A DNA stretch of 64,000 nt from Patescibacteria group bacterium (GCA_028692545.1 JAQUXC010000004.1:630-64629); one strand, 5' to 3'. Shown: positions 1,212 to 63,962, counted from the first letter of the stretch. The notes: generated from the letters alone by a model not told the origin. Program-made: numbers and translations.

Positions 1212-1826
1212 ATGAACAAAAATAAAGCCTTATTATTCAAAAATAAATATAGAATTGAATCAATTCGATTAAAAAATTGGGATTATTCTGATCCTGGTTT
1301 TTATTTTATTACCATTTGTATAAAAGATAGAGAAAATATATTTGGTGAAATCATTGATGGAAAAATGGTTTTAAATATATATGGGTATATTGTGAAATAT
1401 TGTTGTCGTGATTTACCAAATCATTATAAAAATTGTATTGTGGATTCATATGTAATAATGCCGAATCATTTCCATGGGATAATACAAATCAAAGATGCGG
1501 TTCGCGTTGGGATGGTTCGCGACGCATTTGTAGAGACGATTCATGAATCGTCTCTACGCGAACCATCCCAACGGGTCCGACGTGAATCGTCCAAATGCAA
1601 ACACAACACAAAACAACGACGTAAAATGTTATTATCAAAAATAATTGGACGGTTCAAAATGCAATCATCCAAAAAAATCAATTTGGTAAATCACGCAATA
1701 TATTTTCGTTGGCAAAAATCATATTACGAATACATAATCAGAAATGAACAATCATTATATAGAATTCGACAATATATAAAAAACAATCCAATAAATTGGG
1801 ATTGCGACAGAAATAATAACAAATAA
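1212..1826 (+). CDS. IS200-like/RAYT-type Y1 (HuH) transposase (COG1943-like) with an in-frame palindromic insert
   Basis: HuH motif MPNHFHGII; C-terminal WQKSYYEYIIRNEQSLYRIRQYIKNNPINW matches the YYDHIIR...YI.NNP..W signature of REP-associated tyrosine transposases. Confidence 0.7.
   Translation: MNKNKALLFKNKYRIESIRLKNWDYSDPGFYFITICIKDRENIFGEIIDGKMVLNIYGYIVKYCCRDLPNHYKNCIVDSYVIMPNHFHGIIQIKDAVRVGMVRDAFVETIHESSLREPSQRVRRESSKCKHNTKQRRKMLLSKIIGRFKMQSSKKINLVNHAIYFRWQKSYYEYIIRNEQSLYRIRQYIKNNPINWDCDRNNNK
1503..1575. repeat. GC-rich compound palindrome inside the RAYT ORF
   Basis: Outer arms cgcgttgggatggttcgcg and cgcgaaccatcccaacggg (17/19 complementary) enclose a perfect 26-nt palindrome tagagacgattcatgaatcgtctcta. 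Translated in frame as VRVGMVRDAFVETIHESSLREPSQRV, about 30 aa extra between the HuH motif and the catalytic Tyr region. Confidence 0.7.
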
Positions 1827-1827
1827 T

Positions 1828-2019
1828 TTATTTATTTTTCTGTTTTTTAATTATTTTTACAACCCCAAAAATCACGAACAATAATCCCAATCCTTGTGCG
1901 CCGGGACTATCATCATATCCGCCATAAACAAATATAAAAATACCGAACAGTATTAATGGAATTAAATATAATAGTTTTTTGAGTTTCATATAATTTTTCT
2001 TTTTCTTATCTCTAAACAT
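1828..2019 (-). CDS. Small 2-TM membrane protein; the likely start is the internal MKLKKLL
   Basis: Hydrophobic LYLIPLILFGIFIFVY and GLGLLFVIFGVV segments; a truncated paralog sits at 3240-3353. Confidence 0.4.
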   Translation of the reverse strand: MFRDKKKKNYMKLKKLLYLIPLILFGIFIFVYGGYDDSPGAQGLGLLFVIFGVVKIIKKQKNK

Positions 2020-2058
2020 AAATTATTCCCGCCTCAATATAATTTATAATTGTTCCGA

Positions 2059-2086
2059 AATCCCGCTTCGCGGGATTATTTTTCAT
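2059..2086 (+). terminator. Hairpin aatcccgc-ttc-gcgggatt followed by atttttcat
   Basis: 8-bp GC-rich stem and T tract on the + strand. Which transcript it terminates is unclear. Confidence 0.4.
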
Positions 2087-2119
2087 ATAGGTTTGTTAAG
2101 AATTTATTTTACAACAACA

Positions 2120-3181
2120 TTATTTTATAATTTTATATCTTGTGCTTCTTCCCTGACCAATTCTTTCAACTAATCTAAGTGTTAATAATTTTCTAAGTGC
2201 TTGTTTGATAGTAACTAGTGGAATATAATTATTTAATTTTTCATTAATTTCTGAAACACTCAAAGTTTCTCCATTTTTTAATAATTCAAAAACTATCTCT
2301 TGTTTTCCTGACAAAAGTTTTTCTGGTTGTTGTAAGTTCATTAATTCTTTTGCTTTTTCTGCTTGTATGAATAATTTATCAAGAAAAAAACTTAACCATG
2401 GAGTAATATCCTCATTCTTTGTTTTATGGTTTTTTTGAGTAGCTCTAAGTGAAAGATAATAATCATCTTTATTATCTTCTATTATTTCATCAATAGAAAT
2501 ATATGGAACATATGCATAATTATTACGAAGTAAAAGTAAATTTGTAAGAGCTCTGCTTAAACGACCATTTCCATCAAGAAAAGGATGGATAGCTAAAAAT
2601 TCAAATATAAAATTTGCAATAATCAAAATTGGATGTAATTCTTTTTTATCAAATTGTTCATTTGTCCAAGAAATAATTGATTCCATTTCTGGTTTTACTA
2701 AATAAGGTTTTGTTGGATTAAATAAAACAATTTCTTCTCCTGTTTCATTTTTCATTATTACTGTATTTTCTGAACTTTTATATTTCCCTAAATGAGATTG
2801 ATCTTTCTTTGAAAATTGCAAAAGAATACTATGAAATTGAAGTATGTTATTTTCTGTTAATTTAAGTGTATTATAATTATCAAAAATTTTACCAAGCAAG
2901 TCAGCATAACCAGCGACCTCTTCTTCGTCACGATTTTTAGGTGGATTGAGTTTTAATCCGCGAAGCAATCTAGCCACTTCTTCATCTGTCATTTTTGATC
3001 CTTCAATACGAGTAGAAGCACCAGTGGAAGTTATAATAACAGAAGATTTCAGGCGACCTAAAATTTGTGGATTAAGTTTCAAACTTCCACGCCAAAGACC
3101 CTTAAATTCATCTATTTTAGTTATTTTACCTAGTATTTCTTGATTTAATTTAATTCTATCGTAAAATCTATCTTTTTCCAT
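2120..3181 (-). CDS. Fic family protein (class II, with N-terminal inhibitory motif) and C-terminal wHTH-like region
   Basis: Fic active-site motif HPFLDGNGRLSRAL; inhibitory (S/T)xxxE(G/N) motif as STRIEG near the N-terminus. Confidence 0.85.
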   Translation of the reverse strand: MEKDRFYDRIKLNQEILGKITKIDEFKGLWRGSLKLNPQILGRLKSSVIITSTGASTRIEGSKMTDEEVARLLRGLKLNPPKNRDEEEVAGYADLLGKIFDNYNTLKLTENNILQFHSILLQFSKKDQSHLGKYKSSENTVIMKNETGEEIVLFNPTKPYLVKPEMESIISWTNEQFDKKELHPILIIANFIFEFLAIHPFLDGNGRLSRALTNLLLLRNNYAYVPYISIDEIIEDNKDDYYLSLRATQKNHKTKNEDITPWLSFFLDKLFIQAEKAKELMNLQQPEKLLSGKQEIVFELLKNGETLSVSEINEKLNNYIPLVTIKQALRKLLTLRLVERIGQGRSTRYKIIK

Positions 3182-3239
3182 ATTTTTAATGTTTTAATCA
3201 TATATATTTAACTATATACGATTATATACGAAAGTATCT

Positions 3240-3353
3240 AAAAAGTCAAATCCCAGGGCTACGCCGAAGCCTTGGCGAAGGCGAGGCCATAAAAAAACAC
3301 AAAAATACCGAATAGTATTAATGGAATTAAATATAATAGTTTTTTAGTTTTCA
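3240..3353 (-). pseudogene. Truncated paralog of the 1828-2019 small membrane ORF, cut short by a GC-rich element
   Basis: Reverse strand reads MKTKKLLYLIPLILFGIFVFFYGLAFAKASA-stop. Nucleotides about 3286-3353 match 1921-1988 with about 3 differences. Confidence 0.45.
3252..3288. repeat. GC-rich mini-element cccagggctacgccgaagccttggcgaaggcgaggcc
   Basis: Isolated GC island in AT-rich DNA. It shares the motifs gctacg / cgaaggcga(g) with the islands at 4772-4803 and 22036-22070. Confidence 0.5.
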
Positions 3354-3365
3354 TGTGGGCTTATT

Positions 3366-3632
3366 TTAAATTTTAGCTTTATTTAATATATTATCAATTA
3401 TCCAATATTTGTAATTACCAATATTTAAATAATTATATATTTTTGAATCAAATAAGGATTCATAACCTTTTATTTTTAATTCATTTGATAAACTATCTAA
3501 AAATGTTGTCTTGCCTTCTCCCCATTTACCAGAAATGCCAAAAATAAATGATTCATTTTGGATATTATCATAATTTTTTTCTATAATATCTACAACATTT
3601 TTTATAAATTTTTCTCTACTTTTTATTTGCAT
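3366..3632 (-). pseudogene. 88-aa fragment resembling the N-terminus of a KAP-family P-loop NTPase
   Basis: GISGKWGEGKTTFL matches the KAP NTPase Walker A pattern GxxGxWGxGKT. At 88 aa it is far too short for an intact KAP NTPase. Confidence 0.4.
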
Positions 3633-3687
3633 ATATTTACTAATTCATATTTTATCTAATACTAATCTTTATAATATTCTAATTTAC

Positions 3688-6204
3688 CTATTTCTTCAAA
3701 TAACTCTTCAAATATTCCCCAGTCACACTTTTTTCATTTCTAACAATATCTTCAGGTGTTCCATAAGCAATTACACGACCACCATTTTCTCCACCATCAG
3801 GACCCAAGTCAATTATATAATCCATTGATTTTATAACATGCAAATTATGCTCAATAATCAGAATTGTGTTTCCACGTTCTACAAGTTTGTTTAACACGTG
3901 GAGCAACAATTCAATATCATGATAATGAAGTCCTGTTGTGGGCTCATCCAACAAATACAATGTGCGTTTTCCAAGTGTGTTTGTAAGCTCTTTTGCGAGT
4001 TTTATGCGCTGAGCTTCTCCACCTGAAAGAGTTGTTGCTGATTGTCCCAGCTTCAAATATCCAAGTCCAACTTCTATTAGAACTTTTAATTTATCAGTTA
4101 TAAAGTAATTTCCGTCAAAAAGTTTGTATGCCTCATCAATTGTGAGGTCTAGCACATCAGCAATACTATGATTTTTGTATTTTACTTGTAATGTTTCTCT
4201 GTTAAATCTTTTGCCATGACATACTTCACACTCCACAAGTACTGGTGGTAAAAAATGCATTTCAATAAGGTTAAATCCTGCTCCAGAACACGCTTCACAT
4301 CTTCCACCTGCTCGATTGAATGAAAAACGAGATAATGTATATGCTCTTTCACGTGATTCTGGAAGTTCTGCAAAAAATTCTCTAATTGGTGAAAATATTC
4401 CAGTATATGTTGCTGGATTTGATCGTGGAGTTCGACCAATTGGTGATTGATTTATAATTACTAATTTATCAACATATTCTAATCCTTTTATTTCTTTTAC
4501 ATTTTCTAAATTTGGTTTTGCGGGTCTACTCATAATCTTTGAAACATTTTTGTATAACACATCATATATAAGAGATGATTTTCCACTTCCTGAAACTCCA
4601 GTAATACTAACCATACGGCCAAGAGGAATTTCTACATTTACTCCTTTTAGATTATTTGCTTTTGCACCTATAATTTTTATAGCTCCTTTATTTTTCTCAC
4701 GTCGGTGTGCAGGAACTTCGATTTTTCTCTGTCCTCTTAAATATTGCAAAGTCAAAGATTTTTGGAATTTTGATCGCGACGTAGCCGAAGGCGAAGTCGG
4801 ATCAAGTAATTCTAAAGTATTTCCAATTGCCATGACTTCCCCTCCGTGAACTCCAGCAAGAGGTCCAAGATCTACTAAATAATCTGATTCAAGAATAGTT
4901 CTTTCGTCGTGCTCAACAATTATTACAGTATTATTTTTATCGCGTAATGCTTTTAGAGTTTCAATTAATCTGTCAGTGTCTCTTTCATGGAGTCCAATTG
5001 TTGGCTCATCTAAAACATATAGTGTTCGAGAAAGTTGAGATCCAATCTGTGATGATAATCTTATACGTTGTGCTTCTCCACCTGACAATGTTTCTGCTTC
5101 ACGACTAAGTGATAAATAATTCAATCCAACTTTTGATAAAAACTCATATCTATTTATAATTTGATTAATTACCAAATCAGCAATTGCCTTTTGTCGCTTT
5201 GTCATTTTGTCTTGGAAGTGTTTGAAAAATTCAATTGCCTTATCAATAGACAAATCACAAACTTCTGCAATATTCTTTTTGTTTATTTTTACTGACAATG
5301 CTTCATCACGTAATCTTCTACCATTACATTTGTCACATACTTTTCCTTTGAAACCAATTTTTCCCAAACCAGAACATTTTTCACATGCACCATGAGGAGA
5401 ATTAAATGAAAATAATCTTGGCTCTACTTCTGGAAATGAAAAACTATCATTTGGACAAGTCCAGTTTGACGATAATAAAAATTCTTCTTTGTTTATTTGA
5501 ACAACTACAAGACCTTTACTATATGCTAGTGAACTTTCTACTGCTTCAAATAATCTCGTTTCATCAGTTAGCATTACCTTATCAACTACCAAATCAATGC
5601 TGTGCTTTTTCTTTGGGTCTAATACAATTTTTTCTCGAAGTGAATGCATTTTTCCATCAACTCTAACTTCTCCATAGCCAAGTTTTAGATAATCATAAAG
5701 CATTTGATAATATTCACCTTTTCTGTCCATGACAATTGGTGAAAGTATTACTGCAAAGTCCTTATCACCTACTTTTTTAGAAATAATAATATCTATCATT
5801 TCCTCAAGAGATAATTTTTCTATTTTTGTTCCGCAAAGTGGACAAAATACTTCACCAACTCTCGCATAAAGAATTCTTAAGTAATCATAAATATCAGTAA
5901 GTGTTCCAACTGTAGACCTTGGATTATGTGATAGAGCTTTTTGGTCAATAGAAATTGATGGAGCAAGTCCAATTATTTCATCAACATCAGCGGGTTTTTT
6001 TTGTCCCAAAAATTGTCTCATGTATGGTGAAAGTGACTCAACATATTGACGCTGACCTTCAGCAAAAATTGTATCAAAAGCAAGAGACGATTTCCCACTT
6101 CCAGAAAGTCCTGTTATTACTGTTAATTTGTTGTGCGGAATTTCTAAATCTATGTTTTTTAGATTATGCATTCTCGCACCATGTATAATTATTTTTTCTT
6201 CCAT
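3688..6204 (-). CDS. uvrA: Excinuclease ABC subunit A
   Basis: Two ABC modules ([14 protein letters not shown] and [13 protein letters not shown]), LSGGEAQR signature repeats, and Zn-finger Cys clusters. Confidence 0.95.
4772..4803. repeat. GC-rich palindromic insert, in frame, in the uvrA inter-domain linker
   Basis: gatcgcgacgtagccgaaggcgaagtcggatc encodes [11 protein letters not shown] between ...GNTLELL and [11 protein letters not shown]. The E. coli linker is shorter here (recalled from memory). Confidence 0.5.
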
Positions 6205-6219
6205 ATACTAATTTTTTTA

Positions 6220-9936: not shown

Positions 9937-10650
9937 TTGAATATAGGAGTAAAAATGAATGTATTTTGTCGAGATTTCAGGACAGAAAAACTGCATAAGA
10001 GAAGAATGATTCATGGATTTGTAGGAATTCATGAGAAGGTAATATTGGAAGTGGGGTGTGGTAAGGGATACTGTACGGAGATTTTGTTAACAGAAGATAA
10101 TTTTTTGCTTGGAATAGATCCATGCGAAGAAGATATCAAAGAAATAATGACTCGTAATTTTCCAAGAAACGCTCAATTTAGAGCATGTGGCTTACAACAC
10201 ATGACTCATGGATATAGTTTTGATCTTATTGTATTCTACAAGAGCTTTCATGAATTACAAGGAATAAGCCTTGAAGAAGCTCTGATAAAATCAAAACATC
10301 TACTCAATCCAAACGGCAAAATTTTGATAATTGAGGAAAGTCTGAAGTCTCAATTATTTAAAATTCATAACTACGATCCATTCAAAGAAAGAGCAGAAAA
10401 CTTGGAAATTGAAAAAGTTTCAAGAGCTCAAAAATGTGTCATGAACACAAAATATGAGTTATGCGTCTTAAGAACTACGATTGAGTTTAAAAATGTGGAA
10501 GATTTCTGTATTAGAGAGCTTCACGAGACAAAACCTGATCAATTATTTAAAAGTATTGTAGTATTAGCAATAAAAGAAGCTACATCAGTTTATGCAGGTG
10601 AAAAACCATTTTGTTTGAAAGAGGTAATGAATATGTATCTAATTTCATAA
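9937..10650 (+). CDS. Class I SAM-dependent methyltransferase-like protein; paralog of 17247-17891
   Basis: Motif I ILEVGCGKGYCTEILL, then GIDP; the paralog has ILEVACGSGHLTRSLL ... GIDP. Confidence 0.7.
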   Translation: MNIGVKMNVFCRDFRTEKLHKRRMIHGFVGIHEKVILEVGCGKGYCTEILLTEDNFLLGIDPCEEDIKEIMTRNFPRNAQFRACGLQHMTHGYSFDLIVFYKSFHELQGISLEEALIKSKHLLNPNGKILIIEESLKSQLFKIHNYDPFKERAENLEIEKVSRAQKCVMNTKYELCVLRTTIEFKNVEDFCIRELHETKPDQLFKSIVVLAIKEATSVYAGEKPFCLKEVMNMYLIS

Positions 10651-10671
10651 TAAATGGACATTATTAAGTAT

Positions 10672-10704
10672 ATAGCAGACCGGAAACGGTCTGCTATTAT
10701 TTTT
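10672..10704 (+). terminator. Intrinsic terminator
   Basis: agcagaccg-gaaa-cggtctgct followed by tatttttat. Confidence 0.6.
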
Positions 10705-10780
10705 ATAAATTTAATATCAATTAATAAAACAAAAAACTGTGAATTAACACAGAATTTTGTTATTTAAAATAAGTTTTCCT

Positions 10781-11605
10781 TTAATTTTTTGTATTTTGCA
10801 ATAATGCAAGTTCTAAAGCTTCTTCTGGCTTATATTTTTCAGTATCATCTTTATAATAACCAACCACGTGTTCTGTGTTTAAATATTTTTCAGCAATAAC
10901 CCTGAGATTTTCTGGTAATTTATTAATTTTATCTCTTGCAATTGTAGATTTCAATGCAGAATTATAAGATTTGTATTGTTCTTTATATTCATTAGCAATA
11001 GATTTTAAATCTTCTGGTAATTTATCTATTTCACCAAAAGCAATGGCTTCTTTTAATTCAAATTCAAGAGATCTGTCTTTTGAATTTTGTAGATTAGTGT
11101 AGGCAAAATTTCTTAATTTTGGAGGAAGATCATTAATACCTTTTAATGTTTCAGCAATATGCTGAAGTTCAACTACGTGAGCATGAAAAAAATCTATTAT
11201 CTTTATTTTATGTCTTAAATCTTTGAATTCATCAGGTATTTTATCAGCCTCTTGGTCTGCTTTAAACTCAGTTAAAGCTAACAATGGATTTTGATCTATT
11301 GCTGAACTATTAATGGAATTTCTTAAATCTTCTGGTAAATTATCAATTTCCTGTTGAGCTCTAACTATTTCTAATATGGTTTTCATATCATAATCATCTC
11401 TATTAAAATGTTTTTCAGCAACGAGTTTTAAATCATCTGGTAATTTTTTAAGTTCATCTACTGTATCTTTGTCTATATTATTTTCACTATAAACCCTTAA
11501 TAAGGTTTCGTATCTTGATTCATCTTTTTTAGGTATTTCTACCTCATCTTCTTGTTTTCCATCATCATCTTCATTTGAATTTATTGTTGGGTTTTCAAAA
11601 TTCAT
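10781..11605 (-). CDS. Acidic helical-repeat protein (LPEDLK repeats), 274 aa
   Basis: At least 6 repeats such as EIDNLPEDLRNS, EIDKLPEDLKSIANEY, KINKLPENLRVIAEKYL. Confidence 0.6.
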   Translation of the reverse strand: MNFENPTINSNEDDDGKQEDEVEIPKKDESRYETLLRVYSENNIDKDTVDELKKLPDDLKLVAEKHFNRDDYDMKTILEIVRAQQEIDNLPEDLRNSINSSAIDQNPLLALTEFKADQEADKIPDEFKDLRHKIKIIDFFHAHVVELQHIAETLKGINDLPPKLRNFAYTNLQNSKDRSLEFELKEAIAFGEIDKLPEDLKSIANEYKEQYKSYNSALKSTIARDKINKLPENLRVIAEKYLNTEHVVGYYKDDTEKYKPEEALELALLQNTKN

Positions 11606-11647
11606 ATTTTTTGTTTATTCATATTTTTTAATTATTTAAAGTATATA

Positions 11648-11902
11648 TTATGATGCCTTTTTCATATTTTCTAAAGCTGCTTTTAAAGCATCAATAGGAG
11701 AAAGATCTTCGTATCTAGGTCCTATCATTTTTTCGGCAAAAAGTTTCGCATCTTCAGGAAGTTGCATAATTTTTTTATATGCTTCTACTTGTTCTGAGAG
11801 AGCATTTTCATTGTCAATTGAATAGAATAATTTAATTCTTTCTCTAATATCACTATCTTCTTCACTTGTATTTGGCGTTGGAATTTGTTCAAAATTTGGC
11901 AT
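11648..11902 (-). CDS. Short member of the same LPED repeat family
   Basis: MPNFEQ N-terminus; QLPEDAKLFAEKMI repeat. Confidence 0.5.
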   Translation of the reverse strand: MPNFEQIPTPNTSEEDSDIRERIKLFYSIDNENALSEQVEAYKKIMQLPEDAKLFAEKMIGPRYEDLSPIDALKAALENMKKAS

Positions 11903-11962
11903 ATTTTTTTACTTATTAATTATATATTTATAATAAAACAATAATTTTTTTTGTCAAACAAA

Positions 11963-12442
11963 TTATTTATTTTCTAAAATTGGCAAAGTAAACTTTTCTT
12001 TTAGATATTTTTTGTATAATTGTAAATTTTCATAAAAATCAAAAGCGATTAATTCTTTTTCTGGTAAACTATCCAGATCAAACCATCGTATTTCTAAATT
12101 TTCTCCATCAATTTCAGAAACTTTCTTATCAGCTTGAGCAATATATACAAAACTAAGATTCTGTCTATCCTCCGCTGGTCTATTAGGGTTATCAATTATT
12201 GTAAGAAGTTCTAAATTTTTTATTATCCAGCCAGTTTCTTCTTGTGTTTCTCTTTTAATAGTTTGTTTTAACGTTTCATCTCTTTCCATAAACCCTCCTG
12301 GTAATCCCCATTTTCCAATTTCTAAAACACTAACAGGCCCTCTTTTACCCATTAAAACTTTATTATCGCGCACAACAATTGCATTTACAGTTACATGGCG
12401 TAAACTTGTTTTATTTCCATCTTCAAATTCACAATTTATCAT
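11963..12442 (-). CDS. NUDIX hydrolase
   Basis: Nudix box GGFMERDETLKQTIKRETQEETGW. Confidence 0.8.
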   Translation of the reverse strand: MINCEFEDGNKTSLRHVTVNAIVVRDNKVLMGKRGPVSVLEIGKWGLPGGFMERDETLKQTIKRETQEETGWIIKNLELLTIIDNPNRPAEDRQNLSFVYIAQADKKVSEIDGENLEIRWFDLDSLPEKELIAFDFYENLQLYKKYLKEKFTLPILENK

Positions 12443-12444
12443 AA

Positions 12445-13038
12445 TTATTGTTGATTATTTTGATTATTAATTACTTGTTGAGGATTTAGTTTGTCTTGTT
12501 CCTTTTTATAAATAATTTCTAAAATTATAGATATCATAAAAATAAGCATCATTCCAAATAGCAAAATCATTGGATATAATATATATCCACCGTATATACA
12601 ATTAGAGCTTTCACTACAAAGTTTGATATTAATAAATGTAGTATATCCCCAATAAAGACATATTGCTAAATTTATATAAAATAAAACCCAAAATTTCTTT
12701 TTTAGATAAAGACCAAGAATAATTAAATATAAAAATATAACTATAAAATATCTTATTGTTATAGTTATTTCTATAAATATTTTAATATCTCTCATAAAAA
12801 AATTCATAAAAAGAAACACCATTAATAAAAATAGTGGGGATAATATTATTAATAGTGCTCTAAAAAATATGAAGAGCGAATTTTTATGTTTAATATTATA
12901 AAAAATTGCAAAAATTAATAAAAATGGAATTAAAAATAAATAAGATTGTAAATAATTAAGATTAAAATAAAATCGTAGCATAAAAAATATAAATATTATG
13001 GGAATTATCATTAACAATGTTTTAAATGTTTTACTCAT
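12445..13038 (-). CDS. Polytopic membrane protein, hypothetical
   Basis: Five or six hydrophobic segments; tightly packed between two Nudix genes (3-nt and 6-nt gaps). Confidence 0.55.
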   Translation of the reverse strand: MSKTFKTLLMIIPIIFIFFMLRFYFNLNYLQSYLFLIPFLLIFAIFYNIKHKNSLFIFFRALLIILSPLFLLMVFLFMNFFMRDIKIFIEITITIRYFIVIFLYLIILGLYLKKKFWVLFYINLAICLYWGYTTFINIKLCSESSNCIYGGYILYPMILLFGMMLIFMISIILEIIYKKEQDKLNPQQVINNQNNQQ

Positions 13039-14284: not shown

Positions 14285-16948
14285 TTATTTCTTCAATAAG
14301 TCTCTTACTGCTGCTTGAGCTGCTGCAAGACGAGCAATTGGCACTCTAAATGGTGAACAAGATACATAATTAAATCCATTTCTGTGACAGAATTCAACTG
14401 ATTTTGGCTCGCCACCGTGCTCTCCGCAAATTCCAATCTTCAAATCTTTGTTTGCGCTTCTACCTTTTTCTACTGCAATTTTTATTAGCTCGCCAATACC
14501 TTCTTGATCAAGTACTTCAAATGGATCATCTTCAAATATTCCTTGATTTACATATTCTTTCAAGAATTTTCCAGCATCGTCACGAGAAAGTCCTGCACCC
14601 ATTTGAGTCAAATCATTTGTACCAAATGAGAAAAATTCAGCACCAGCTTCAACAATCTTATCTGCTACTAATGCTGCACGAGGAACTTCTATCATTGTTC
14701 CAACTTTGTACTCAATTTCAATTCCAGCTTCTTTTAGCTTATTTTCAACAATATTTACAATCCTATCTTTCAAAATAGAAAATTCTTTTGTAGTTGCAAC
14801 AAGTGGAATCATAATTTCTGGCTTTACATCATGTTTAGCACCACATTTTGGACATTTTGTAGCAACTTCTATTGCTGCTTCTATAATAGCTCTTGTTTGC
14901 ATATCACAAATCTCAGGAAATGTTATTGCCAATCTACATCCACGATGACCAAGCATTGGATTGAATTCATGCAAATCATCAATTTTTGATTTTATAGTTG
15001 CGATATCAACATTCATCTCTCCAGCTAATTCTGCAATATCTTTTTCTTCTCTTGGTAAAAATTCATGAAGCGGTGGATCAAGTAATCTAATTGTAGTATC
15101 ATACTCATCCATTTCATGAAATAATCCAATAAAATCTTGTTTTTGATATGGTAATAATTTTGCAAGTGCTTTTTCTCTTGCCTCTAGATTATCTGACAAA
15201 ATCATTTCTCTTACAGCTTTTATTCTATCACCTTCAAAAAACATATGTTCTGTTCTGCAAAGTCCTATTCCTTTTGCTCCAAATTTTATAGCAATTGAAG
15301 CATCATGTGGAGTATCAGCATTTGCTCTTACATCTAATTTTCTAAATTCATCAGCCCAACTCATAAGGGTTCCAAAAGTTCCGGACAATTCTGGATCTTG
15401 AGTTCCTACTTTATTCAAGTAGACTTTTCCAACTGATCCATCTAGTGAAATAAAATCCCCTTCTTTCAAAATTATATTTTTGCTTTTTATTGTAAGTGTT
15501 TTTGCTTTTTCATCAATTGACAAGTCACTGCATCCTGCTACACAACATTTTCCCATACCACGAGCTACAACTGCAGCATGACTAGTCATTCCACCTCGAG
15601 CTGTAAGAATTCCTTTTGCGCTATGCATTCCATCAATATCTTCAGGCGAAGTTTCTGTTCTTACCAAAATTACATCTAATCCGCTATTTGTTTTTTCAAA
15701 TGCTTCTATTGCAGTAAATACAACTTCACCAACAGCAGCACCAGGAGATGCTGGCAAACCTTGAGCAATTTCTTCTGCATTTTGCAAAGCTATTGGGTCT
15801 AATTGTTTATGTAACAATTGATTTAATTGATTTGGATCAACTCGAAGTATTGCTTCTTCTTTTGTAATGAGTTTTTCTTCAACCAATTCAACAGCAATTC
15901 TTATTGCTGCTGCTCCAGTACGTTTTCCATTTCTAGCTTGCAAAATATATAATTTATTATTTTGAATGGTAAATTCCATATCCTGCATGTCTTTGTAATG
16001 TTTTTCAACTTTATCACAGGTATCAACAAGCTCTTTGTAAATTTCTGGATTTTGAGTTTCTAACTCTGAAACTGGCATTGGAGTTCTAATTCCTGCTACA
16101 ACATCTTCTCCTTGAGCATTCATTAAGTATTCACCATAAAATTTTGCTTCACCTGTGGAAGGATTTCTTGTAAAACACACTCCTGTACCACTATCTTCTC
16201 CAAGATTTCCAAATACCATACTTTGAATATTTACTGCAGTTCCAATCAATCCTCTTATACTATTTAGTTCACGATAACGAATAGCTCTATTATTATTCCA
16301 AGAACTAAATACTGCATTTATTGCCAAAAACAATTGTTCAATAGGATCTTGTGGAAATTCTATTCCTTTTATTCCTTTTATTTTTTCTTTGTATCTTTTT
16401 GTTATTTCTTGTAAATCTTCTGTTGTAAGGTCTGTATCATATTTAGCACCTTTTGTATCTTTTACATTTTCCAAAATATGTTCAAATTCAGAGTGTTCTA
16501 CTTCCATCACAACGTCTCCAAACATTTGTATAAGACGTCTATAAGAATCCCATGCGAATCTAGGATTGTTTGACTTGTTAGAAAGACCAATTACTGATTT
16601 ATCATTTAATCCTAAATTTAGAATTGTATCCATCATTCCAGGCATAGAAGAAGCAGCACCAGATCTCACAGAAACCAAAAGTGGATCAATATCATCACCC
16701 AATGTTTTTCCCATTTTTTTCTGAAGCTCATCTAAATACCTTAAAATTTCACTTCTTACTTCTTGAGTGATTGTTTTATTGCTTTTATAATACAAATCAC
16801 AAACTTCTGTTGTGATTGTAAATCCAGGAGGAACATTTATGCCGAGTGTTGACATTTCAGCTAGGTTTGCACCTTTTCCACCAAGAATTTCTTTCATGTC
16901 CTTATTTCCTTCTTCAAAAGAATAGATATATTTCTTTACATCTGTCAT
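14285..16948 (-). CDS. ppdK: Pyruvate, phosphate dikinase
   Basis: 887 aa; phospho-His motif GGMTSHAAVVARGMG, CRTEHMF, PEP-utilizing C-terminal domain. Confidence 0.95.
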   Translation of the reverse strand: MTDVKKYIYSFEEGNKDMKEILGGKGANLAEMSTLGINVPPGFTITTEVCDLYYKSNKTITQEVRSEILRYLDELQKKMGKTLGDDIDPLLVSVRSGAASSMPGMMDTILNLGLNDKSVIGLSNKSNNPRFAWDSYRRLIQMFGDVVMEVEHSEFEHILENVKDTKGAKYDTDLTTEDLQEITKRYKEKIKGIKGIEFPQDPIEQLFLAINAVFSSWNNNRAIRYRELNSIRGLIGTAVNIQSMVFGNLGEDSGTGVCFTRNPSTGEAKFYGEYLMNAQGEDVVAGIRTPMPVSELETQNPEIYKELVDTCDKVEKHYKDMQDMEFTIQNNKLYILQARNGKRTGAAAIRIAVELVEEKLITKEEAILRVDPNQLNQLLHKQLDPIALQNAEEIAQGLPASPGAAVGEVVFTAIEAFEKTNSGLDVILVRTETSPEDIDGMHSAKGILTARGGMTSHAAVVARGMGKCCVAGCSDLSIDEKAKTLTIKSKNIILKEGDFISLDGSVGKVYLNKVGTQDPELSGTFGTLMSWADEFRKLDVRANADTPHDASIAIKFGAKGIGLCRTEHMFFEGDRIKAVREMILSDNLEAREKALAKLLPYQKQDFIGLFHEMDEYDTTIRLLDPPLHEFLPREEKDIAELAGEMNVDIATIKSKIDDLHEFNPMLGHRGCRLAITFPEICDMQTRAIIEAAIEVATKCPKCGAKHDVKPEIMIPLVATTKEFSILKDRIVNIVENKLKEAGIEIEYKVGTMIEVPRAALVADKIVEAGAEFFSFGTNDLTQMGAGLSRDDAGKFLKEYVNQGIFEDDPFEVLDQEGIGELIKIAVEKGRSANKDLKIGICGEHGGEPKSVEFCHRNGFNYVSCSPFRVPIARLAAAQAAVRDLLKK

Positions 16949-17037
16949 AGATTTTATTTTTTTATGTTTTTAATTAAAAATAGTAGCTATATTCTCTCAT
17001 TTTTTAGAATTAAAATCAAGTATACAAATAAATACAA

Positions 17038-17180
17038 TGCCAATACCTGCCTGCCCGCCTGCCTGCCGGTAGGCAGGGCAGGCAGGTACAAATGATATAC
17101 CAATTATACAAATGACATTAGTATTATTGGTATAAATTAGTCCGCCTTGGCTTTGCCGTTAGGCGAGACGAGTATATTTA
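17038..17180. repeat. Intergenic repeat element, copy B, interrupted by two GC-rich palindromic inserts
   Basis: Core caaatgatataccaattatacaaatgacattagtattattggtataaattag matches copy A. The inserts are cctgcctgcccgcctgcctgccggtaggcagggcaggcagg (about 17046-17088) and tccgccttggctttgccgttaggcgagacgag (about 17142-17176). Confidence 0.5.
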
Positions 17181-17246
17181 TATATTCAATGTTGCTTTAA
17201 TGCTAATATTCTGTTATATTATTCTATTACAATCAAGGAGGATAAA

Positions 17247-17891
17247 ATGATTGATTTCATCGTTTCTAAAAGACAAATGATAATTCAGTCATTTGTCAGT
17301 CTTCGAAAAAAGAAAATTTTAGAAGTAGCATGTGGAAGTGGACATCTAACAAGATCACTTCTCACTGGTGATAATTTTGTACTTGGAATTGATCCAAATA
17401 CAAAATCTATTGAAATAGCCAAAAAAGTTGCTCCAAAAGCAGCATTTATGACTAAGAGTTTTGAGGATTTCAGTCCAGGAGAAAGGCAATTTGATCTTGT
17501 GATATTTTCAATAGGTCTTCATGAAATGGAAAATCAAGAAGAACTAATTATGAAAGCAAAAAAAATAGTTACTCAGAGCAATGGAAATGTTTTAATTATT
17601 GAAAGAGATATTACAACCCAGTTTTTTAATGTCATAAATAAAATAAATCCTTCTATAATAGAGGATGAATTTAAAAAAGTATCTAAAACATCTGAAATTT
17701 TGAATTCTTTGTCTCCTATCAATATAGGTATTCTTCCGAATATTATGCACTTTCAAAATGCAATAGATTTTTGGAAGATATGTCTCAATGGAGACAAAAA
17801 AGTGACCATTATTTCTATAGTCGAAGCTTTGAATGTAAAACTCAATCAAGGTTTTTACATAGAAGATAATATGATAATGTATTTATTATAA
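17247..17891 (+). CDS. Class I SAM-dependent methyltransferase-like protein (paralog of 9937-10650)
   Basis: AAGGAGGA Shine-Dalgarno; ILEVACGSGHLT motif I. Confidence 0.7.
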   Translation: MIDFIVSKRQMIIQSFVSLRKKKILEVACGSGHLTRSLLTGDNFVLGIDPNTKSIEIAKKVAPKAAFMTKSFEDFSPGERQFDLVIFSIGLHEMENQEELIMKAKKIVTQSNGNVLIIERDITTQFFNVINKINPSIIEDEFKKVSKTSEILNSLSPINIGILPNIMHFQNAIDFWKICLNGDKKVTIISIVEALNVKLNQGFYIEDNMIMYLL

Positions 17892-22017: not shown

Positions 22018-22079
22018 TTCGGGGATCGTCTAATGCTCGCCCGCATCGCTACGCGAAGCGTTGCGAGCGGGGTAGGACA
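22018..22079 (+). pseudogene. Truncated duplicate of the tRNA-Gln 5' part (acceptor/D-arm, about 26 nt) split by a 35-nt GC-rich palindromic insert
   Basis: ttcggggatcgtctaatg[ctcgcccgcatcgctacgcgaagcgttgcgagcgg]ggtaggaca matches 22343-22368 of the intact tRNA on both sides of the insert. Confidence 0.55.
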
Positions 22080-22084
22080 AAATT

Positions 22085-22333
22085 ATGTATTATACATATG
22101 TTTTAAAAAGTAAAAAAGATGATAAACTATATATTGGTTATACTAAAGATTTAGATAATAGATTCAAAGAGCATAATAATGGATTAGTTTTTTCAACTAG
22201 GAATAGAAAGCCATTTGAAATAATATATTTTGAAGCATGTTTAGTTAAAAAAGATGCTATAAAAAGAGAAAAGCAATTAAAAACTGGTTTTGGAAGAACT
22301 TACTTAAATAGAAGGTTGAGTAATTTAAAATAA
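22085..22333 (+). CDS. GIY-YIG domain nuclease (about 82 aa, stand-alone)
   Basis: YTYVLKS...DKLYIGYTKDLDNRFKEHNNG...FEIIYFE...REKQLK. Confidence 0.8.
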   Translation: MYYTYVLKSKKDDKLYIGYTKDLDNRFKEHNNGLVFSTRNRKPFEIIYFEACLVKKDAIKREKQLKTGFGRTYLNRRLSNLK

Positions 22334-22342
22334 AATACCATT

Positions 22343-42005: not shown

Positions 42006-42019
42006 TTACTTGTTTATCA

Positions 42020-42085: not shown

Positions 42086-42098
42086 ACCGAAACAATAA

Positions 42099-43115
42099 AT
42101 GCCTAAAATAATAAAAAATTATAAAACAAAGAATTTCTGGCTTTCACTTAGAAAGCCAATTTTAGCTTTGGCACCTATGGCAGGAATTACTGACAGCGCA
42201 TATTGTACAATTTGTCGCAAAAACGGAGCTGATGTAGTTTATACTGAAATGATTTCTGCGGATGGCTTAAATTACAATTCCAAAAAAACTGGTAATATGT
42301 TAAAAATTCTAAAAGGTGAAAAACCTGTTGTGGTACAACTTTTTGGAAAAGATCCTGAGAAATTTGTACGTGCAACTCAAATTGTTACAAAATTAGGATT
42401 TTCTGGAATTGATATAAATTTTGGTTGTCCAGCAAAAAAAGTAGCGGGCCATGGTGGTGGTGCAACTTTGATGCGAGATTTAAATTTGTGTTACAAAATT
42501 ATAAAATCAGTTTGTGATAATACAGATCTACCAGTTTCTATAAAAGTAAGAAAATCAATAACTGCAAATAGTTGTAAGATTAAAAAATTAAAAGTTGAAA
42601 GCAATAAAGAAATTATTACATCACTCGATTTGATAAAAAAAATAAAAAACTTGAGAATTTCCACAATAATGATCCACTCACGAACTTATGAGCAGGGATT
42701 TAGTGGTGAAATTGATTATAATTACATCAAAAATGTCAGAAAACACTTCAAAGGTATAATTCTAGCAAATGGTAATATAAACACTCCAGAGATGGCAAAA
42801 AAGACCTTAGAATTGACAGGGGCTGATGGTATTGGAATTGCTCGTGGAGTATATGGAAAACCATGGATTTTTAAGCAATGTAAAGATTATTTGGAAACTA
42901 ATAAATACAAAGAAAAAACTTGGGCTCAGATAAAAAAAATAGCACTTACTCATGCTAAATTAAATTTTGAAATTAAAAGTGATTATGGAATAGTAGAAAT
43001 GCGCAAACATTTACTCTTTTATACAAAAAATCAAAAGTTTGCAAAAGAAATGAGAAGAGAACTGGTAAATGTAAAAACAATATCAGAAATAAAAAAAGTA
43101 TTTGATAAATACTAA
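42099..43115 (+). CDS. tRNA-dihydrouridine synthase (DusB-like)
   Basis: LALAPMAGITDSAYCTICRKNGADVVYTEMISA, DINFGCPAKKV, HSRT. Confidence 0.85.
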   Translation: MPKIIKNYKTKNFWLSLRKPILALAPMAGITDSAYCTICRKNGADVVYTEMISADGLNYNSKKTGNMLKILKGEKPVVVQLFGKDPEKFVRATQIVTKLGFSGIDINFGCPAKKVAGHGGGATLMRDLNLCYKIIKSVCDNTDLPVSIKVRKSITANSCKIKKLKVESNKEIITSLDLIKKIKNLRISTIMIHSRTYEQGFSGEIDYNYIKNVRKHFKGIILANGNINTPEMAKKTLELTGADGIGIARGVYGKPWIFKQCKDYLETNKYKEKTWAQIKKIALTHAKLNFEIKSDYGIVEMRKHLLFYTKNQKFAKEMRRELVNVKTISEIKKVFDKY

Positions 43116-58209: not shown

Positions 58210-59206
58210 AATATTCGTAGGTCTTTTTCAAATTTTCATCCAAATTATCTTCTATTTTTTCCCCCAACAAACTTTGCATCTTTGAAACATCTGGGCTTCT
58301 ATATTTTATTTCATAACCACGCTCGCCTATAAAAACTGGTTTTAAATCCTTATTGCTTATTTTAATAATTCTTTGTGCTAAATCAAGTATTGTAGTTTGT
58401 CTTCCAAGTCCAATATTTATTGTTTCACCATTTGTAGAATCTGACAAAAGTGCTTTTATGGCAGATCTGACATTATCTTTTACATAGATGAAATCTCTTG
58501 TTTGATATCCATCTCCATAAATCGTTAGAGATTCACCCTTTAAAACCTGTTTTATGAATACTCCAACTACAAAACCATAAGCAGATGATTCCTGTCTTTC
58601 TCCAAATACATTAAAAAATCGCAAAGAACAAGTTTTTACTCCATAATTATCATTGTAAACTTTCATAATTTTTTCACCCATCAATTTCACAAGTGCATAT
58701 AAACTCGTACTGTGTGTTTGATAAGAAAGTTCCTTGTTATTATCTTCTCTAAGAGGTAATTCATTCAAAGTTCCATATGCCTCAGATGATGATGAAAAAA
58801 CAACCTTTTTTATAGAAAATTCTTTTGAAAGTGATAATATATTTTTTATTCCAACTATATCATCCAAAACCAAAAGTGGTTGCTCCATTACTCTCTTTAC
58901 GCCAAGCACTGCTGCATAATGAAAAATATAATCAAAATGATATTGCTCGAAAACAGATTTTAGTAAACTTAGATCATTTACATCTCCTTTTACAAATTCA
59001 AAATTAGAATTTTTACTTGCTAATTCCAAATTTTCCATTTTTCCCGTTGAGAGATTATCCAAAGCTACGACATTTGCATTTAAATTCAACAATTCATCAC
59101 ATAAATGAGATCCTATAAATCCAGCTCCTCCTGTTACCAAAATGTTTTTATTTGTTAATTTATCCATATTTTTAGGTTGAATTATAATAATATAATACAA
59201 TAACAA
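58193..59206 (-). CDS. NAD-dependent sugar-nucleotide 4-epimerase (WbpP/Gne-like)
   Basis: GGAGFIGSH, SSSSEAYG, YALVK, RFFNVFGERQ. Confidence 0.8.
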   Translation of the reverse strand: MLLYYIIIIQPKNMDKLTNKNILVTGGAGFIGSHLCDELLNLNANVVALDNLSTGKMENLELASKNSNFEFVKGDVNDLSLLKSVFEQYHFDYIFHYAAVLGVKRVMEQPLLVLDDIVGIKNILSLSKEFSIKKVVFSSSSEAYGTLNELPLREDNNKELSYQTHSTSLYALVKLMGEKIMKVYNDNYGVKTCSLRFFNVFGERQESSAYGFVVGVFIKQVLKGESLTIYGDGYQTRDFIYVKDNVRSAIKALLSDSTNGETINIGLGRQTTILDLAQRIIKISNKDLKPVFIGERGYEIKYRSPDVSKMQSLLGEKIEDNLDENLKKTYEYYANKK

Positions 59207-59239
59207 TACAATAAATGAGTCATAAAATCAATCTTACCT

Positions 59240-59268
59240 CACCCCCGGGGTTGCCAACCCCGGGGGTG
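59240..59268. repeat. Perfect GC-rich palindrome cacccccgggg-ttgccaa-ccccgggggtg
   Basis: 29-nt dyad in the divergent promoter region. It has the same cac...ttgccaa...gtg frame as the REP at 63193-63221. Confidence 0.6.
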
Positions 59269-59285
59269 GGAGTTAAAATTAAACT

Positions 59286-60431
59286 ATGAATAAAAACAAA
59301 ACAAAACTTTGCCACATAATAACACAAACACACTTTGGCGGTGCTCAAAAATATCTATGTGACATAATAAACAATCTTGATGATAATTTTGAGATAACTA
59401 TTGCCTTTGGTGAAGGAAAAAAAGAAGAATTAAAAAAATATATAACAAACAAAAATGTAAAAATTGTCAAATTAAAACATCTAATAAGAAATATAAACAT
59501 TTTTAAAGATAAGCTAGCATTTTTGGAATTATTTATATTTTTCAAAAAATATAAATTTGATATTATTCATCTTCATTCTTCAAAAGCTGGTTTCATAGCT
59601 TCAATAACTGGAAAACTAACTGGAGTGAAAAAAATAATTTATACAGCTCACGGTTGGGTTTTCAAAGAAAATCTAAATCCCACAAAAAAACAATTCTATA
59701 TATTATTGGAAAAATTTTCTTCAAAATTCAAAGACAAAATAATTTGTGTGTCGCAAAATGATTATAATTTAGCACTTGAAAAAAATATTGTCTCAAAAAA
59801 CAAACTTACAATGATTTACAATGGAATAAAGTCTAAAAATTATTTAAATAATGAAGATGCACGAGAATTTTTATTTCAAAAAATAAACACGCTAGACACA
59901 AAACAAAAAATAATAGGAACCATATCCAACTTATATTCAAACAAAGGTATAAATTATTTAATCGAATCAGCAATATTATTAAATGAAAAATATAATAATT
60001 TATTATTTATAATTATAGGATCCGGCCCAGAAAAAGAAAATCTTCAAAAACTAATAAAGAAAAATAATTTAAAAAACTTCTTTTTGATAGGTAATATAAA
60101 CAATGCTTATAAATATCTAAAAGCTTTTGATATATTTGCCCTCACATCAATCAAGGAAGGTCTTCCTTATACACTTTTAGAGGCTCTAGAAGCCAAAATT
60201 TCAATAGTTTGCAGTAATCTTGAATCATTGACTGAAATTATAGAAAATAATCAAAATGGGCTAATATATGACGTAAAAAATATAAATGATTTAACAGATA
60301 AAATACAAACACTTTTAGACAATAATGATGTTGCAGAAAAATTAAAAAATAATGATAGGTTAATATTATCAAAATTTGATTTTCAAAATTTTATAGAGAA
60401 TATAAAAAATATCTATCTAAACAAATTATAA
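59286..60431 (+). CDS. Glycosyltransferase family 4
   Basis: LTSIKEGLPYTLLEALEAKISIVCSN. Confidence 0.8.
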   Translation: MNKNKTKLCHIITQTHFGGAQKYLCDIINNLDDNFEITIAFGEGKKEELKKYITNKNVKIVKLKHLIRNINIFKDKLAFLELFIFFKKYKFDIIHLHSSKAGFIASITGKLTGVKKIIYTAHGWVFKENLNPTKKQFYILLEKFSSKFKDKIICVSQNDYNLALEKNIVSKNKLTMIYNGIKSKNYLNNEDAREFLFQKINTLDTKQKIIGTISNLYSNKGINYLIESAILLNEKYNNLLFIIIGSGPEKENLQKLIKKNNLKNFFLIGNINNAYKYLKAFDIFALTSIKEGLPYTLLEALEAKISIVCSNLESLTEIIENNQNGLIYDVKNINDLTDKIQTLLDNNDVAEKLKNNDRLILSKFDFQNFIENIKNIYLNKL

Positions 60432-60803: not shown

Positions 60804-60900
60804 AATTTAAATTTAATAATTTTGTCTCTATATTTTATAACTATAAAACAAATTGGTCAAAGACAATTATTAACACAATAAAGGCCGTCTATAATTGATA

Positions 60901-63126: not shown

Positions 63127-63192
63127 TTATTTTTCTATAATTATTAACTTATAAATATTCTATAATATATAATCTAAATAGGCAATTCTCTC

Positions 63193-63221
63193 CACGTCCG
63201 ACGTTGCCAACGTCGGACGTG
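63193..63221. repeat. REP-like palindrome cacgtccgacgttg-c-caacgtcggacgtg (5' flank of the RAYT gene)
   Basis: 14-bp perfect arms; seen directly. Confidence 0.7.
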
Positions 63222-63317
63222 TGGTATATAGTATTGACTTTGATATATTCTGAAGTAAAATATAAACATGGGTCGCAAAAGCGATCTTTTTGTTTTAATA
63301 AATAAAGAAAAGCGATT

Positions 63318-63926
63318 ATGATAAGGAATATATTATCAAACAATATTTATCATGTTTATAATAGAGGAACTGAAAAAAGAAGAATTTTTTATAATCAAAG
63401 GGATTATAATTATTTTTTGAGTAGAATGTTTTTTTATAAAGATCAGTTTAAAGTAAAAATTTTATCTTATGCAATATTACCAAACCATTTTCATTTTTTA
63501 CTAGAAGAACCAACGTCGGACGTTGTTAACGTCCGACGTTGCAGTTACAAACCAAATACTAATCAATATCATGGATCAAAAATATCAAAGTTTATATCTA
63601 TTTTATTAAATTCTTATACAAAATATTTCAATAATAGACGAGAGCATTCTGGGAGAATTTTTCAAGGACCATTTAAATCTAAACTTATAAGTAGTGATAC
63701 TTATTTGCAAACAGTTTTTGTTTATGTAAATTTAAATCCAATAAAGCATGGGGTTGTAAATAATATAAATGACTGGCTTTATACTTCCCATCATTATTTT
63801 TCAGATAAATTTAATTCTGGAATAGTAGATAGTAATGATTTTATAGATAAAACTATCTATAAATCTATTATCAAAAATTATAAAGATAAAATAGAAAATA
63901 ATGACGTAGATTTGGAATTTGATTAG
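63318..63926 (+). CDS. IS200-like/RAYT-family Y1 transposase flanked by REP-like palindromes
   Basis: HuH motif LPNHFHFLL; GRIFQGPFKSKLISSDTYL...YVNLNPIKHG...W block typical of COG1943. Confidence 0.7.
   Translation: MIRNILSNNIYHVYNRGTEKRRIFYNQRDYNYFLSRMFFYKDQFKVKILSYAILPNHFHFLLEEPTSDVVNVRRCSYKPNTNQYHGSKISKFISILLNSYTKYFNNRREHSGRIFQGPFKSKLISSDTYLQTVFVYVNLNPIKHGVVNNINDWLYTSHHYFSDKFNSGIVDSNDFIDKTIYKSIIKNYKDKIENNDVDLEFD
63511..63541. repeat. REP-like palindrome inside the RAYT ORF (caacgtcggacgtt-gtt-aacgtccgacgttg)
   Basis: Same arms as the flanking copies; translated in frame as PTSDVVNVRRCS immediately after the HuH motif. Confidence 0.7.
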
Positions 63927-63928
63927 TC

Positions 63929-63962
63929 ACCAACGTCCGACGTTGGCAACGTCGGACGTGGA
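63929..63962. repeat. REP-like palindrome 3' of the RAYT gene (acgtccgacgttg-g-caacgtcggacgt)
   Basis: Begins 3 nt after the RAYT stop codon. Confidence 0.65.

Follow-up and report, generated by a model that had tools for sequence, protein, structure and literature searches.

The 64,000-nucleotide (nt) window of a Patescibacteria group bacterium that we analysed (GCA_028692545.1, JAQUXC010000004.1:630-64629; positions are those of the window) contains short GC-rich palindromes, and we consider it likely that these are single-stranded DNA hairpin repeats of the repetitive extragenic palindrome (REP) type that coexist with two genes for REP-associated tyrosine transposases (RAYTs). One REP–RAYT system, or two, in this genome is the best-supported explanation. 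The two genes, RAYT1 (1212-1826) and RAYT2 (63318-63926), are the Y1_Tnp genes found by Pfam in the window. That palindromes resembling REPs or Rickettsia palindromic elements (RPEs) are scattered here, some of them in frame within genes, was the claim of the original prediction, and it is supported for RAYT1 and uvrA; an internal copy in RAYT2 comes in addition. The G+C content of the whole window is 26.7%, and that of most of the listed islands 57–60%. Copy counts for this genome refer to this single contig.

The RAYT2 locus is a REPtron, in which a REP doublet, the HUH-encoding 5' half of the gene, an in-frame REP doublet, the 3' half with the catalytic tyrosine and another REP doublet follow each other. 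Its parts are given below, with z values for the DNA folding energy relative to 200 shuffles (our test of dyad symmetry):

63193-63221: upstream REP doublet of RAYT2 (CACGTCCGACGTTGCCAACGTCGGACGTG), 97 nt before the start codon, fold z -7.5
63318-63926, plus strand: RAYT2, a Y1 HUH gene (202 a.a.), Pfam Y1_Tnp, with a sequence and structure match to 4er8
63511-63541, plus strand: internal in-frame REP doublet (CAACGTCGGACGTTGTTAACGTCCGACGTTG), fold z -7.1
63931-63961: downstream REP doublet of RAYT2, 5 nt past the stop codon, fold z -5.6

The REP palindrome of the window, CAACGTC[C/G]GACGTTG, forms inverted doublets at three sites, all of them at RAYT2 (the unit is CAACGTCSGACGTTG); the internal and flanking copies differ by a compensatory flip from C-G to G-C and by their loop. 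Within this contig, the REP has counterparts outside the RAYT2 locus only in the half-copy of RAYT1 and in the related 59238 hairpin. In L165 and L175, distant copies do occur (L numbers are fetched loci, except that L161 is the same contig and L178 its re-assembly; the window itself is W). We also considered membership of the CGTC-tagged REPs, which have an unpaired terminal CGTC, an 8–9 bp stem opening with A-T pairs, a 4–5 nt loop and a CCA tail (PMC3733652); it was rejected, as the window REP has its CGTC inside a 13–14 bp stem and a 3-nt loop.

RAYT2 has the motifs NHFH (at residue 56), FQ (115-116; the IFQG match begins at residue 114), YVNLNP (136) and W.YTSHH (155), and H57, H59 and Y136 are invariant in a 35-homolog alignment (A1). 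Its score against the NCBIfam family REP_Tyr_transpos is 64 bits, under the 80-bit cutoff; the best match by sequence and by structure is PDB entry 4er8 (E. coli TnpA_REP; the AlphaFold2 model has a pLDDT of 85). The protein is identical to PHZ07_02555 from contig JAQVMJ010000004.1 of GCA_028703695.1, a metagenome-assembled genome (MAG) of Patescibacteria; this contig has 64,707 nt, nearly all of them in the window. The internal REP encodes residues 65-75 (PTSDVVNVRRC), immediately past HFHFLL, and in the AlphaFold2 model a coil (residues 64-87) separates the HUH strand from the following helix, its residues 70-77 having a pLDDT below 50. In the same alignment, close Patescibacteria homologs vary strongly in this post-HUH segment and distant ones lack it, and the peptides of the close homologs are those that translated palindromes give (e.g. 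PTLRVGHPEGG).

This arrangement is found throughout the RAYT2 clade. Besides the window there are ten independent clade loci with DNA (L001-L005, L165, L169, L173, L175 and L176), and in all of them, as in the window, exact GC-containing 11-mers or longer matches are common to the insert region and the flanks. In all 11 loci the post-HUH hairpin is repeated close upstream and/or downstream of the gene, and the sequence of the REP is wholly different from genome to genome (e.g. CCTCGCAGGTCG, CCCTCAGGGTCG, CAACCCGTCGGGTTG, AACCCCGCGGGTT and GCCAACCTCGAAGGTTGGC). The spacing from HUH to FQ is 41–54 a.a. in the clade, compared with 32–33 a.a. in 115 of 161 other loci (mostly distant RAYT homologs). 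Among these 161, no 11-mers common to the post-HUH region and the flanks were found except in L017, L135, L056, L111 and L120; most of the 161 have repeats common to both flanks. A metagenome scan for close relatives of RAYT2 returned distant homologs only (at most 40% identity), and these were used solely as no-insert controls.

By its motifs, RAYT2 fits the second motif set of subclass 2.1 and not subclass 2.4 (Table 1 of PMC6006769). Subclass 2.1 has NH[YF]H, FQ, Y[IV]HLNP and a serine tail motif, no REPs, terminal inverted repeats (TIRs) in some cases, a C-terminal helix-turn-helix (HTH)-like domain and a median length of 238 a.a. (PMC6006769). RAYT2 is like subclass 2.1 or TIRYT genes (Quentin 2018; Di Nocera 2013) in NHFH, FQ, Y[IV]xLNP and the W.Y(S/T)S tail; its YVNLNP has N where 2.1 has H, and its homologs have YINLNP or YIHLNP. 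It is unlike them in the remaining traits: it has REPs on both sides and inside, is 202 a.a. long (the Patescibacteria clade is ∼200 a.a.), and Pfam finds Y1_Tnp only, with no HTH detected. Repeats from flank to flank at most distant loci, as for TIR-flanked genes, are a further likeness: among the distant 2.1-like loci L006-L160, most have several to more than 100 GC-containing 11-mers common to the 350 nt upstream and downstream, which is consistent with TIRs of the TIRYT type as the rule in such loci.

In-gene REPs have been called unique to subclass 2.4 (PMC6006769). Judged by motifs, in-gene REPs seem to have a second lineage in the Patescibacteria RAYT2 clade, at the same structural loop as in 2.4, because the clade has 2.1-type motifs although 2.1 was described as REP-less. 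A REPtron with three hairpins in a 2.1-like clade, its internal copy matching the flanking ones across 11 loci, looks to be new.

Three loci add observations of their own. In L051 (3824-4365) a RAYT2-type gene is deleted from the exact insert site to the DW.YTSH motif, so that the catalytic tyrosine is lost, and the degenerate gene still lies between its REPs (AACCTCGAAGGTT); the start of the deletion hints that an internal REP may act as a rearrangement site. In L056 (Moheibacter lacus, Bacteroidota, ∼4147) there is a long post-HUH insert with 11-mers common to the insert and both flanks, and therefore in-gene REPs probably occur in this Bacteroidota lineage too. In L173, a Patescibacteria-like contig, a pair resembling a diversity-generating retroelement (bAvd and a reverse transcriptase, 10434-12642) lies 4 kb downstream of the RAYT gene.

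Because internal and flanking copies match in every one of the 11 loci although the REPs have diverged completely between genomes, and given the L051 deletion, it is conceivable, if rather doubtful, that the internal REP of the clade is no tolerated accident but a third REPtron site, conserved and evolving in concert with the flanking REPs. If so, it could be a recombination or cleavage site or a regulatory hairpin, and it might permit self-deletion of the catalytic half or be a protected master copy.

The other transposase gene, RAYT1, also contains a palindrome in frame:

1212-1826, plus strand: RAYT1, a Y1 HUH gene like TnpA_REP (204 a.a.), by Pfam Y1_Tnp and motifs
1503-1575, plus strand: nested in-frame palindrome, residues 98-122 of RAYT1, -35.9 kcal/mol, fold z -9.4
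1570-1590, plus strand: half-copy resembling the RAYT2 REP (AACGGGTCCGACGTGAATCG compared with CAACGTCGGACGTGGAAATC), local alignment z 4.6

RAYT1 has NHFH at residue 85, WQ at 167 and YIKNNP at 188, and scores 60 bits against REP_Tyr_transpos, again under the 80-bit cutoff. The outer arms of its palindrome (1503-1521 and 1557-1575) pair over 19 bp with one mismatch, and an inner ‘double-foot’ GTAG…CTAC palindrome, GTAGAGACGATTCATGAATCGTCTCTAC at 1530-1557, encodes VETIHESSL; the half-REP follows directly after the palindrome. A GTAG foot was found in this inner palindrome only: the RAYT2 unit has the feet CAAC/GTTG and no GTAG, and so lacks the GT[AG]G foot. In the homologs of RAYT1 the post-HUH region is hypervariable and encoded by REPs, often as tandem repeats (VGAIHELPL, VETIHELSL, VETGLKPVST). 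Based on motifs, RAYT1 belongs to subclass 2.4 of Table 1 of PMC6006769 (NH[IFV]H, WQ, YIxNNP, length and variable insertion), a subclass of ∼194 a.a. whose members have, between beta3 and alphaC, a variable insertion derived from REPs (PMC6006769). In-frame REPs within subclass 2.4 tnpA_REP genes have been published (Quentin 2018, PMC6006769), so this part of the finding is already known.

A third in-frame case is found in a DNA repair gene, uvrA (3688-6204, minus strand):

4771-4803, minus strand: in-frame uvrA insertion of 30 nt, residues 469-478, fold z -3.4

The insert is an imperfect palindrome of 10 codons between GATC brackets and contains CGTAGC. Compared with the Bst and Tma UvrA structures, the window UvrA has extra residues exactly at the palindrome. 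Among 120 homologs, the insert is missing from P0121 and P0122 (96%), P0123 (91%), P0124 (90%), P0125, P0128, P0129 and P0130, which read D-SKN(I/K)KF at the site; P0126 (88%) carries the window-type insert and P0127 (89%) a diverged version, D-SKSN-PTSHKASSGP-KF. The segment is thus present in only three of ∼11 close relatives, and outgroups have a different short linker at the site. From these comparisons the uvrA segment is a derived, polymorphic insertion and not ancestral. The original prediction, which placed an in-frame element in the uvrA linker, holds here, and the outcome that would have spoken against it, ancestral coding sequence, is not what is seen for uvrA. Comparison with sister genomes, which it had proposed, revealed presence/absence differences for the uvrA insert and for a GIY-YIG cassette (absent from L163 and L164; see below). 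Di Nocera et al. (2013, PMC3733652) had already reported REPs in repair genes of several phyla, uvrA and uvrB among them. As a side observation, the window UvrA, like homologs of ∼835 a.a. in Patescibacteria, is without ∼120 residues corresponding to B. stearothermophilus UvrA 302-421 (the insertion domain), and the UvrB-binding domain is retained.

The window has far more hairpins than its composition predicts. Counting only stems of 10 bp or more and a G+C content of 55% or more, we observed nine hairpins; shuffles that preserve local composition in 40-nt blocks had 0.25 on average and never more than two. The GC-rich, dyad-symmetric segments of the original prediction all exist, and most fold better than shuffles. 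Next to the three RAYT2 REP copies (z -5.6 to -7.5), folds are strong at 1495-1585 (z -9.4), 17035-17095 (z -5.9) and 59232-59276 (z -5.1) and moderate at the uvrA insert (4765-4810, z -3.4), 17135-17180 (z -3.4), 22030-22075 (z -3.2) and 42015-42090 (z -2.4); dyad symmetry did not hold for the island at 3252-3288 (3245-3295, z -1.0, not significant), and the segment 42020-42085 has only ∼47% G+C (counted from the sequence). Other GC islands (e.g. 4828-4869, 14397-14436, 15726-15756 and 42441-42475) were set aside as ordinary conserved coding sequence rich in Gly, Ala and Pro. Two further readings of the hairpins were rejected: no terminator-like sites were found at 16900-17300 or 59150-59350, which disposes of intrinsic terminators, and no known RNA family in Rfam matched above threshold.

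The elements are real, and they do not form a single family, because just three relationships exceed chance. We aligned the elements pairwise and compared the scores with shuffles (91 comparisons): the REP copies at RAYT2 are mutually related (z 10–22), the RAYT1 half-REP is related to the RAYT2 REPs (z 4.6) and the element of a small open reading frame (ORF) is related to a palindrome in a tRNA fragment (z 4.5). For all remaining pairs the similarity is at chance level allowing for 91 comparisons, which rules out the reading as one family, and the clustering into families that had been foreseen did not emerge. The shared short motifs fared better than the family idea: GCTACG occurs eight times in the window (2.0 expected), four of these inside the listed elements, but nearly all pairwise similarities are not significant. 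GTTGSCAAC occurs three times (0.19 expected), every time at a hairpin apex. A search of the fetched loci (1.1 Mb) for each element gave orthologous copies or matches at chance level and nothing else.

Several hairpins lie between genes or at the end of the contig:

17044-17088: 20-bp hairpin with CCTGCC repeats, PPDK/methyltransferase divergent spacer, fold z -5.9, singleton
17142-17172: second hairpin in the PPDK/methyltransferase spacer, fold z -3.4, singleton
42024-42077: imperfect hairpin of moderate G+C, spacer between an AAA_14 ATPase gene and dus, fold z -2.4, singleton
59238-59270: 15-bp hairpin, 79-nt divergent epimerase/glycosyltransferase spacer, fold z -5.1
63986-64000, on past the window end: left arm of a further GC-rich hairpin (CTCCCACCCCGCAAAGCGGGATGGGAG), L161 10669-10695

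The orthologous site of the 17044 hairpin in L163 has nothing comparable, and none of the four hairpins at 17044, 17142, 42024 and 59238 was found at orthologous or other positions in the fetched relatives. By composition and symmetry these four may be placed in the REP class. Only the 59238 hairpin, among the intergenic ones, has specific sequence evidence of family membership: it has a CAC…GTTGCCAAC…GTG scaffold in common with the upstream REP of RAYT2, and a 10-mer of its foot, CTCCCACCCC, is also found in the hairpin at 63986. The 42024 hairpin contains CGTAGC (GCTACG on the minus strand at 42069-42074). The genes next to elements include, by Pfam, Fic, uvrA, uvrB, PPDK, a methyltransferase, dus, an epimerase, glycosyltransferases and a Wzy/TPR protein, and, by Pfam and tRNA tools, tRNA-Asn, an 82-a.a. 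GIY-YIG gene and tRNA-Gln.

Two more elements touch a small ORF and a tRNA gene:

3252-3288, minus strand: GC-rich element at the 3' end of small-ORF paralog 2 (3259-3354), from paralog alignment, weak dyad
22018-22035 and 22072-22079, plus strand: displaced tRNA-Gln 5' duplicate (26 nt), fold z -3.2
22085-22333, plus strand: GIY-YIG nuclease gene (82 a.a.), Pfam GIY-YIG E 7.8e-18

The small membrane-protein gene has two paralogs, 1828-1989 (full length, 53 a.a.) and 3259-3354, whose DNA is identical through …TTTATGGC and diverges where the GC element starts. In the window and in L162, where the same small-ORF and Fic cassette holds a copy that is 98% identical over 56 nt, the ORF ends at a TAG within the element, so the small ORF is truncated in this genome; in L164 the element reads through in frame, with GCGAAGCC replacing GCGTAGCC. 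The 53-a.a. ORF, which has two transmembrane segments, and its upstream perfect hairpin, AATCCCGCTTCGCGGGATT (window 1828-2078), are 95% identical in L163 (16681-16905), there in a different gene neighbourhood after AbiEii, which is the behaviour of a portable cassette. Downstream of uvrA lies an island of variable, defence-like content (window 1200-3700; L162 8500-14135; L163 12560-19400): it holds Fic and a KAP-like fragment in the window, DUF3800, a restriction-modification system and GmrSD in L162, and NYN, MazG, a SLFN-like helicase, AbiEii and Fic in L163.

The tRNA-Gln fragment is split by a 36-nt palindrome (22036-22071) between AATG and GTAGGACA, which contains a GCGAAGC mini-hairpin, and the GIY-YIG gene sits between the fragment and the intact tRNA-Gln (22342-22415). 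Palindrome, GIY-YIG gene and spacer form a cassette of 324 nt; it is inserted in the 5' part of tRNA-Gln, whose first 26 nt are duplicated. L164 (4335-4545) represents the empty site, with AT-rich upstream sequence joined straight to tRNA-Gln; L163 (1-215) is without the cassette and has a 13-nt remnant of the tRNA 5' copy ∼95 nt upstream of tRNA-Gln. By this comparison the fragment is a by-product of the insertion of the GIY-YIG cassette and not a functional RNA. It had been taken in the original prediction for a structural RNA that tolerates an insert in its D-loop, and this did not survive the empty-site comparison, the fragment being a displaced 26-nt duplicate beside GIY-YIG. Of the four elements said to sit inside frames or RNAs without breaking them, those in uvrA and RAYT1 do so, whereas the one in the small ORF ends it with TAG and the tRNA is a displaced fragment. 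In-frame insertion of the RPE type was therefore seen for uvrA, RAYT1 and RAYT2, and not for the small ORF.

E. coli TnpA_REP and IS608 bind folded single-stranded DNA hairpins and cleave beside a short foot. By analogy with these enzymes, the RAYTs of the window would bind hairpins folded in single-stranded DNA, cleave next to a short conserved foot and then copy or move the hairpins; the foot would apparently be CAAC/GTTG for the RAYT2 family and GTAG for the RAYT1 family. Copies that land in genes would persist only if they are a multiple of three in length, contain no stop codon and lie in a linker or a surface loop, a filter that would account for the in-frame cases.

Several observations weigh against this explanation. 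Dispersal and high copy number are defining traits of REPs; neither is visible within this contig, where the RAYT2 REP is nearly confined to its own gene. To our knowledge, transposition activity has been demonstrated for no RAYT of these clades. RAYT1 is without flanking REPs, with no palindrome in the 62 nt upstream or the 74 nt downstream (the nearest, 2050-2078, belongs to the small-ORF cassette). The elements of uvrA, the small ORF, the tRNA fragment and 42024 have little in common except CGTAGC and GAAG loops, and the small-ORF element is syntenic in L162, not polymorphic, and folds no better than shuffles. Finally, most of the intergenic hairpins lie between divergent genes, whereas the REPs described in the literature are found preferentially between convergent or co-directional genes (PMC3733652).

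In another explanation, the palindromes are unrelated, locally evolved functional hairpins (mRNA stabilisers, attenuators, operators, or replication or transcription signals) that are not mobile, with a G+C content that serves stem stability. Most elements occur only once in the window and form no clusters, several lie in divergent spacers that bear promoters, the small-ORF element and the 2050-2078 hairpin move with their gene as a cassette, and the recurrent GAA(G) and TTCG loops could be convergent. We nevertheless think it unlikely, as the three REP copies at RAYT2, in an arrangement that recurs in every one of the clade loci, are repeats, the uvrA insert was gained or lost between orthologs that are 96% identical, there are neither T-tract terminators nor an Rfam family, and two dedicated hairpin-processing enzymes are encoded on the same contig.

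For uvrA, a different history can be proposed: a single insertion, spread as a segregating allele by short-tract gene conversion among co-occurring Patescibacteria with no transposition by a RAYT. The inserts of the window and L163 are 29/30 identical and both sequences are also without the 12 nt encoding SKNx, although the uvrA of the window is closer to insert-free L162 (90% nt identity) than to L163 (83%); the window is nearer to L163 only in the immediate surroundings of the insert (within ∼100 nt, from about -45 to +90), and L164 has a clean 30-nt insertion, diverged, at the same codon boundary. This local closeness points to recent acquisition by short-tract recombination or site-specific re-insertion. 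The tract is short, however, and 29/30 against a background of 83% has an estimated p of ∼0.03, the similarity of the flanks being non-significant and suggestive only; gene conversion also leaves the origin of the palindrome unexplained, and it is compatible with a REP origin and not exclusive of it. As a replacement for RAYT transposition we regard it as quite unlikely. That the in-gene GC segments are ancestral coding sequence, i.e. low-complexity linkers that are palindromic by chance, would agree with the intact reading frames, with their position in loops free to drift and with the ordinary conserved coding motifs in other GC islands of the window, but it is extremely improbable and already contradicted: the uvrA segment is missing from eight of 11 orthologs at 86% identity or more and the outgroup linker is short and different, the RAYT2 segment is absent in distant homologs and its DNA equals that of the flanking non-coding REPs, and the RAYT1 region is hypervariable and built of repeats across homologs.

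REP–RAYT systems, which we prefer as the explanation, are regarded as long-lived, vertically inherited intragenomic replicators and have been studied mainly in Proteobacteria. The Proteobacterial REP/REPIN–RAYT systems (E. coli, Pseudomonas) likewise have a single-copy Y1 HUH gene between palindromic repeats, and their REPINs form long hairpins from inverted doublets, like the RAYT2 repeats; the RAYT2 model matches 4er8 best. Unlike them, the system described here is in an AT-rich Patescibacteria MAG and has CAAC/GTTG feet and a third copy in the gene, and its copy number comes from one contig. RAYT1 is like subclass 2.4 (Bertels RAYT group 4) in its motifs, its length (∼194–204 a.a.), its insertion between the HUH strand and helix C and its double-foot palindrome, and the RAYT2 REP is predicted at the same structural loop. 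The differences from subclass 2.4 are that RAYT1 is without flanking REPs in the contig and that RAYT2 has FQ and not WQ, and YVNLNP and not YIxNNP. The uvrA insert of the window behaves like the intragenic REPs and RPEs of repair genes, which add ∼10–30 a.a. in frame in a loop of uvrA or uvrB (PMC3733652); unlike those cases it is from another phylum and is one imperfect 30-nt hairpin, with no second copy found. It does not have the CGTC-tagged REP architecture (RPE-4, RPE-6) and is far shorter than RPE-1, a longer palindromic insertion (PMC3733652). As to the novelty that had been suggested, the behaviour of in-frame palindromes is published (PMC3733652, PMC6006769), while in the literature searched we found no description of it for the candidate phyla radiation (CPR) or Patescibacteria, and no paper linking REPs or RAYTs with them.

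These results extend the reach of REPs and RAYTs to the ultra-small, AT-rich genomes of Patescibacteria. GC-rich hairpins are conspicuous in such genomes and may break their assemblies; this contig stops ∼150 nt beyond RAYT2 and its REPtron. For annotation, peptide inserts encoded by palindromes are to be expected in CPR proteins (UvrA and RAYTs), as are pseudo-tRNA fragments beside GIY-YIG cassettes. The presence of a RAYT gene's own REP at the same loop in a second, unrelated RAYT clade suggests a recurrent and possibly mechanistic link between the gene of the enzyme and its substrate.

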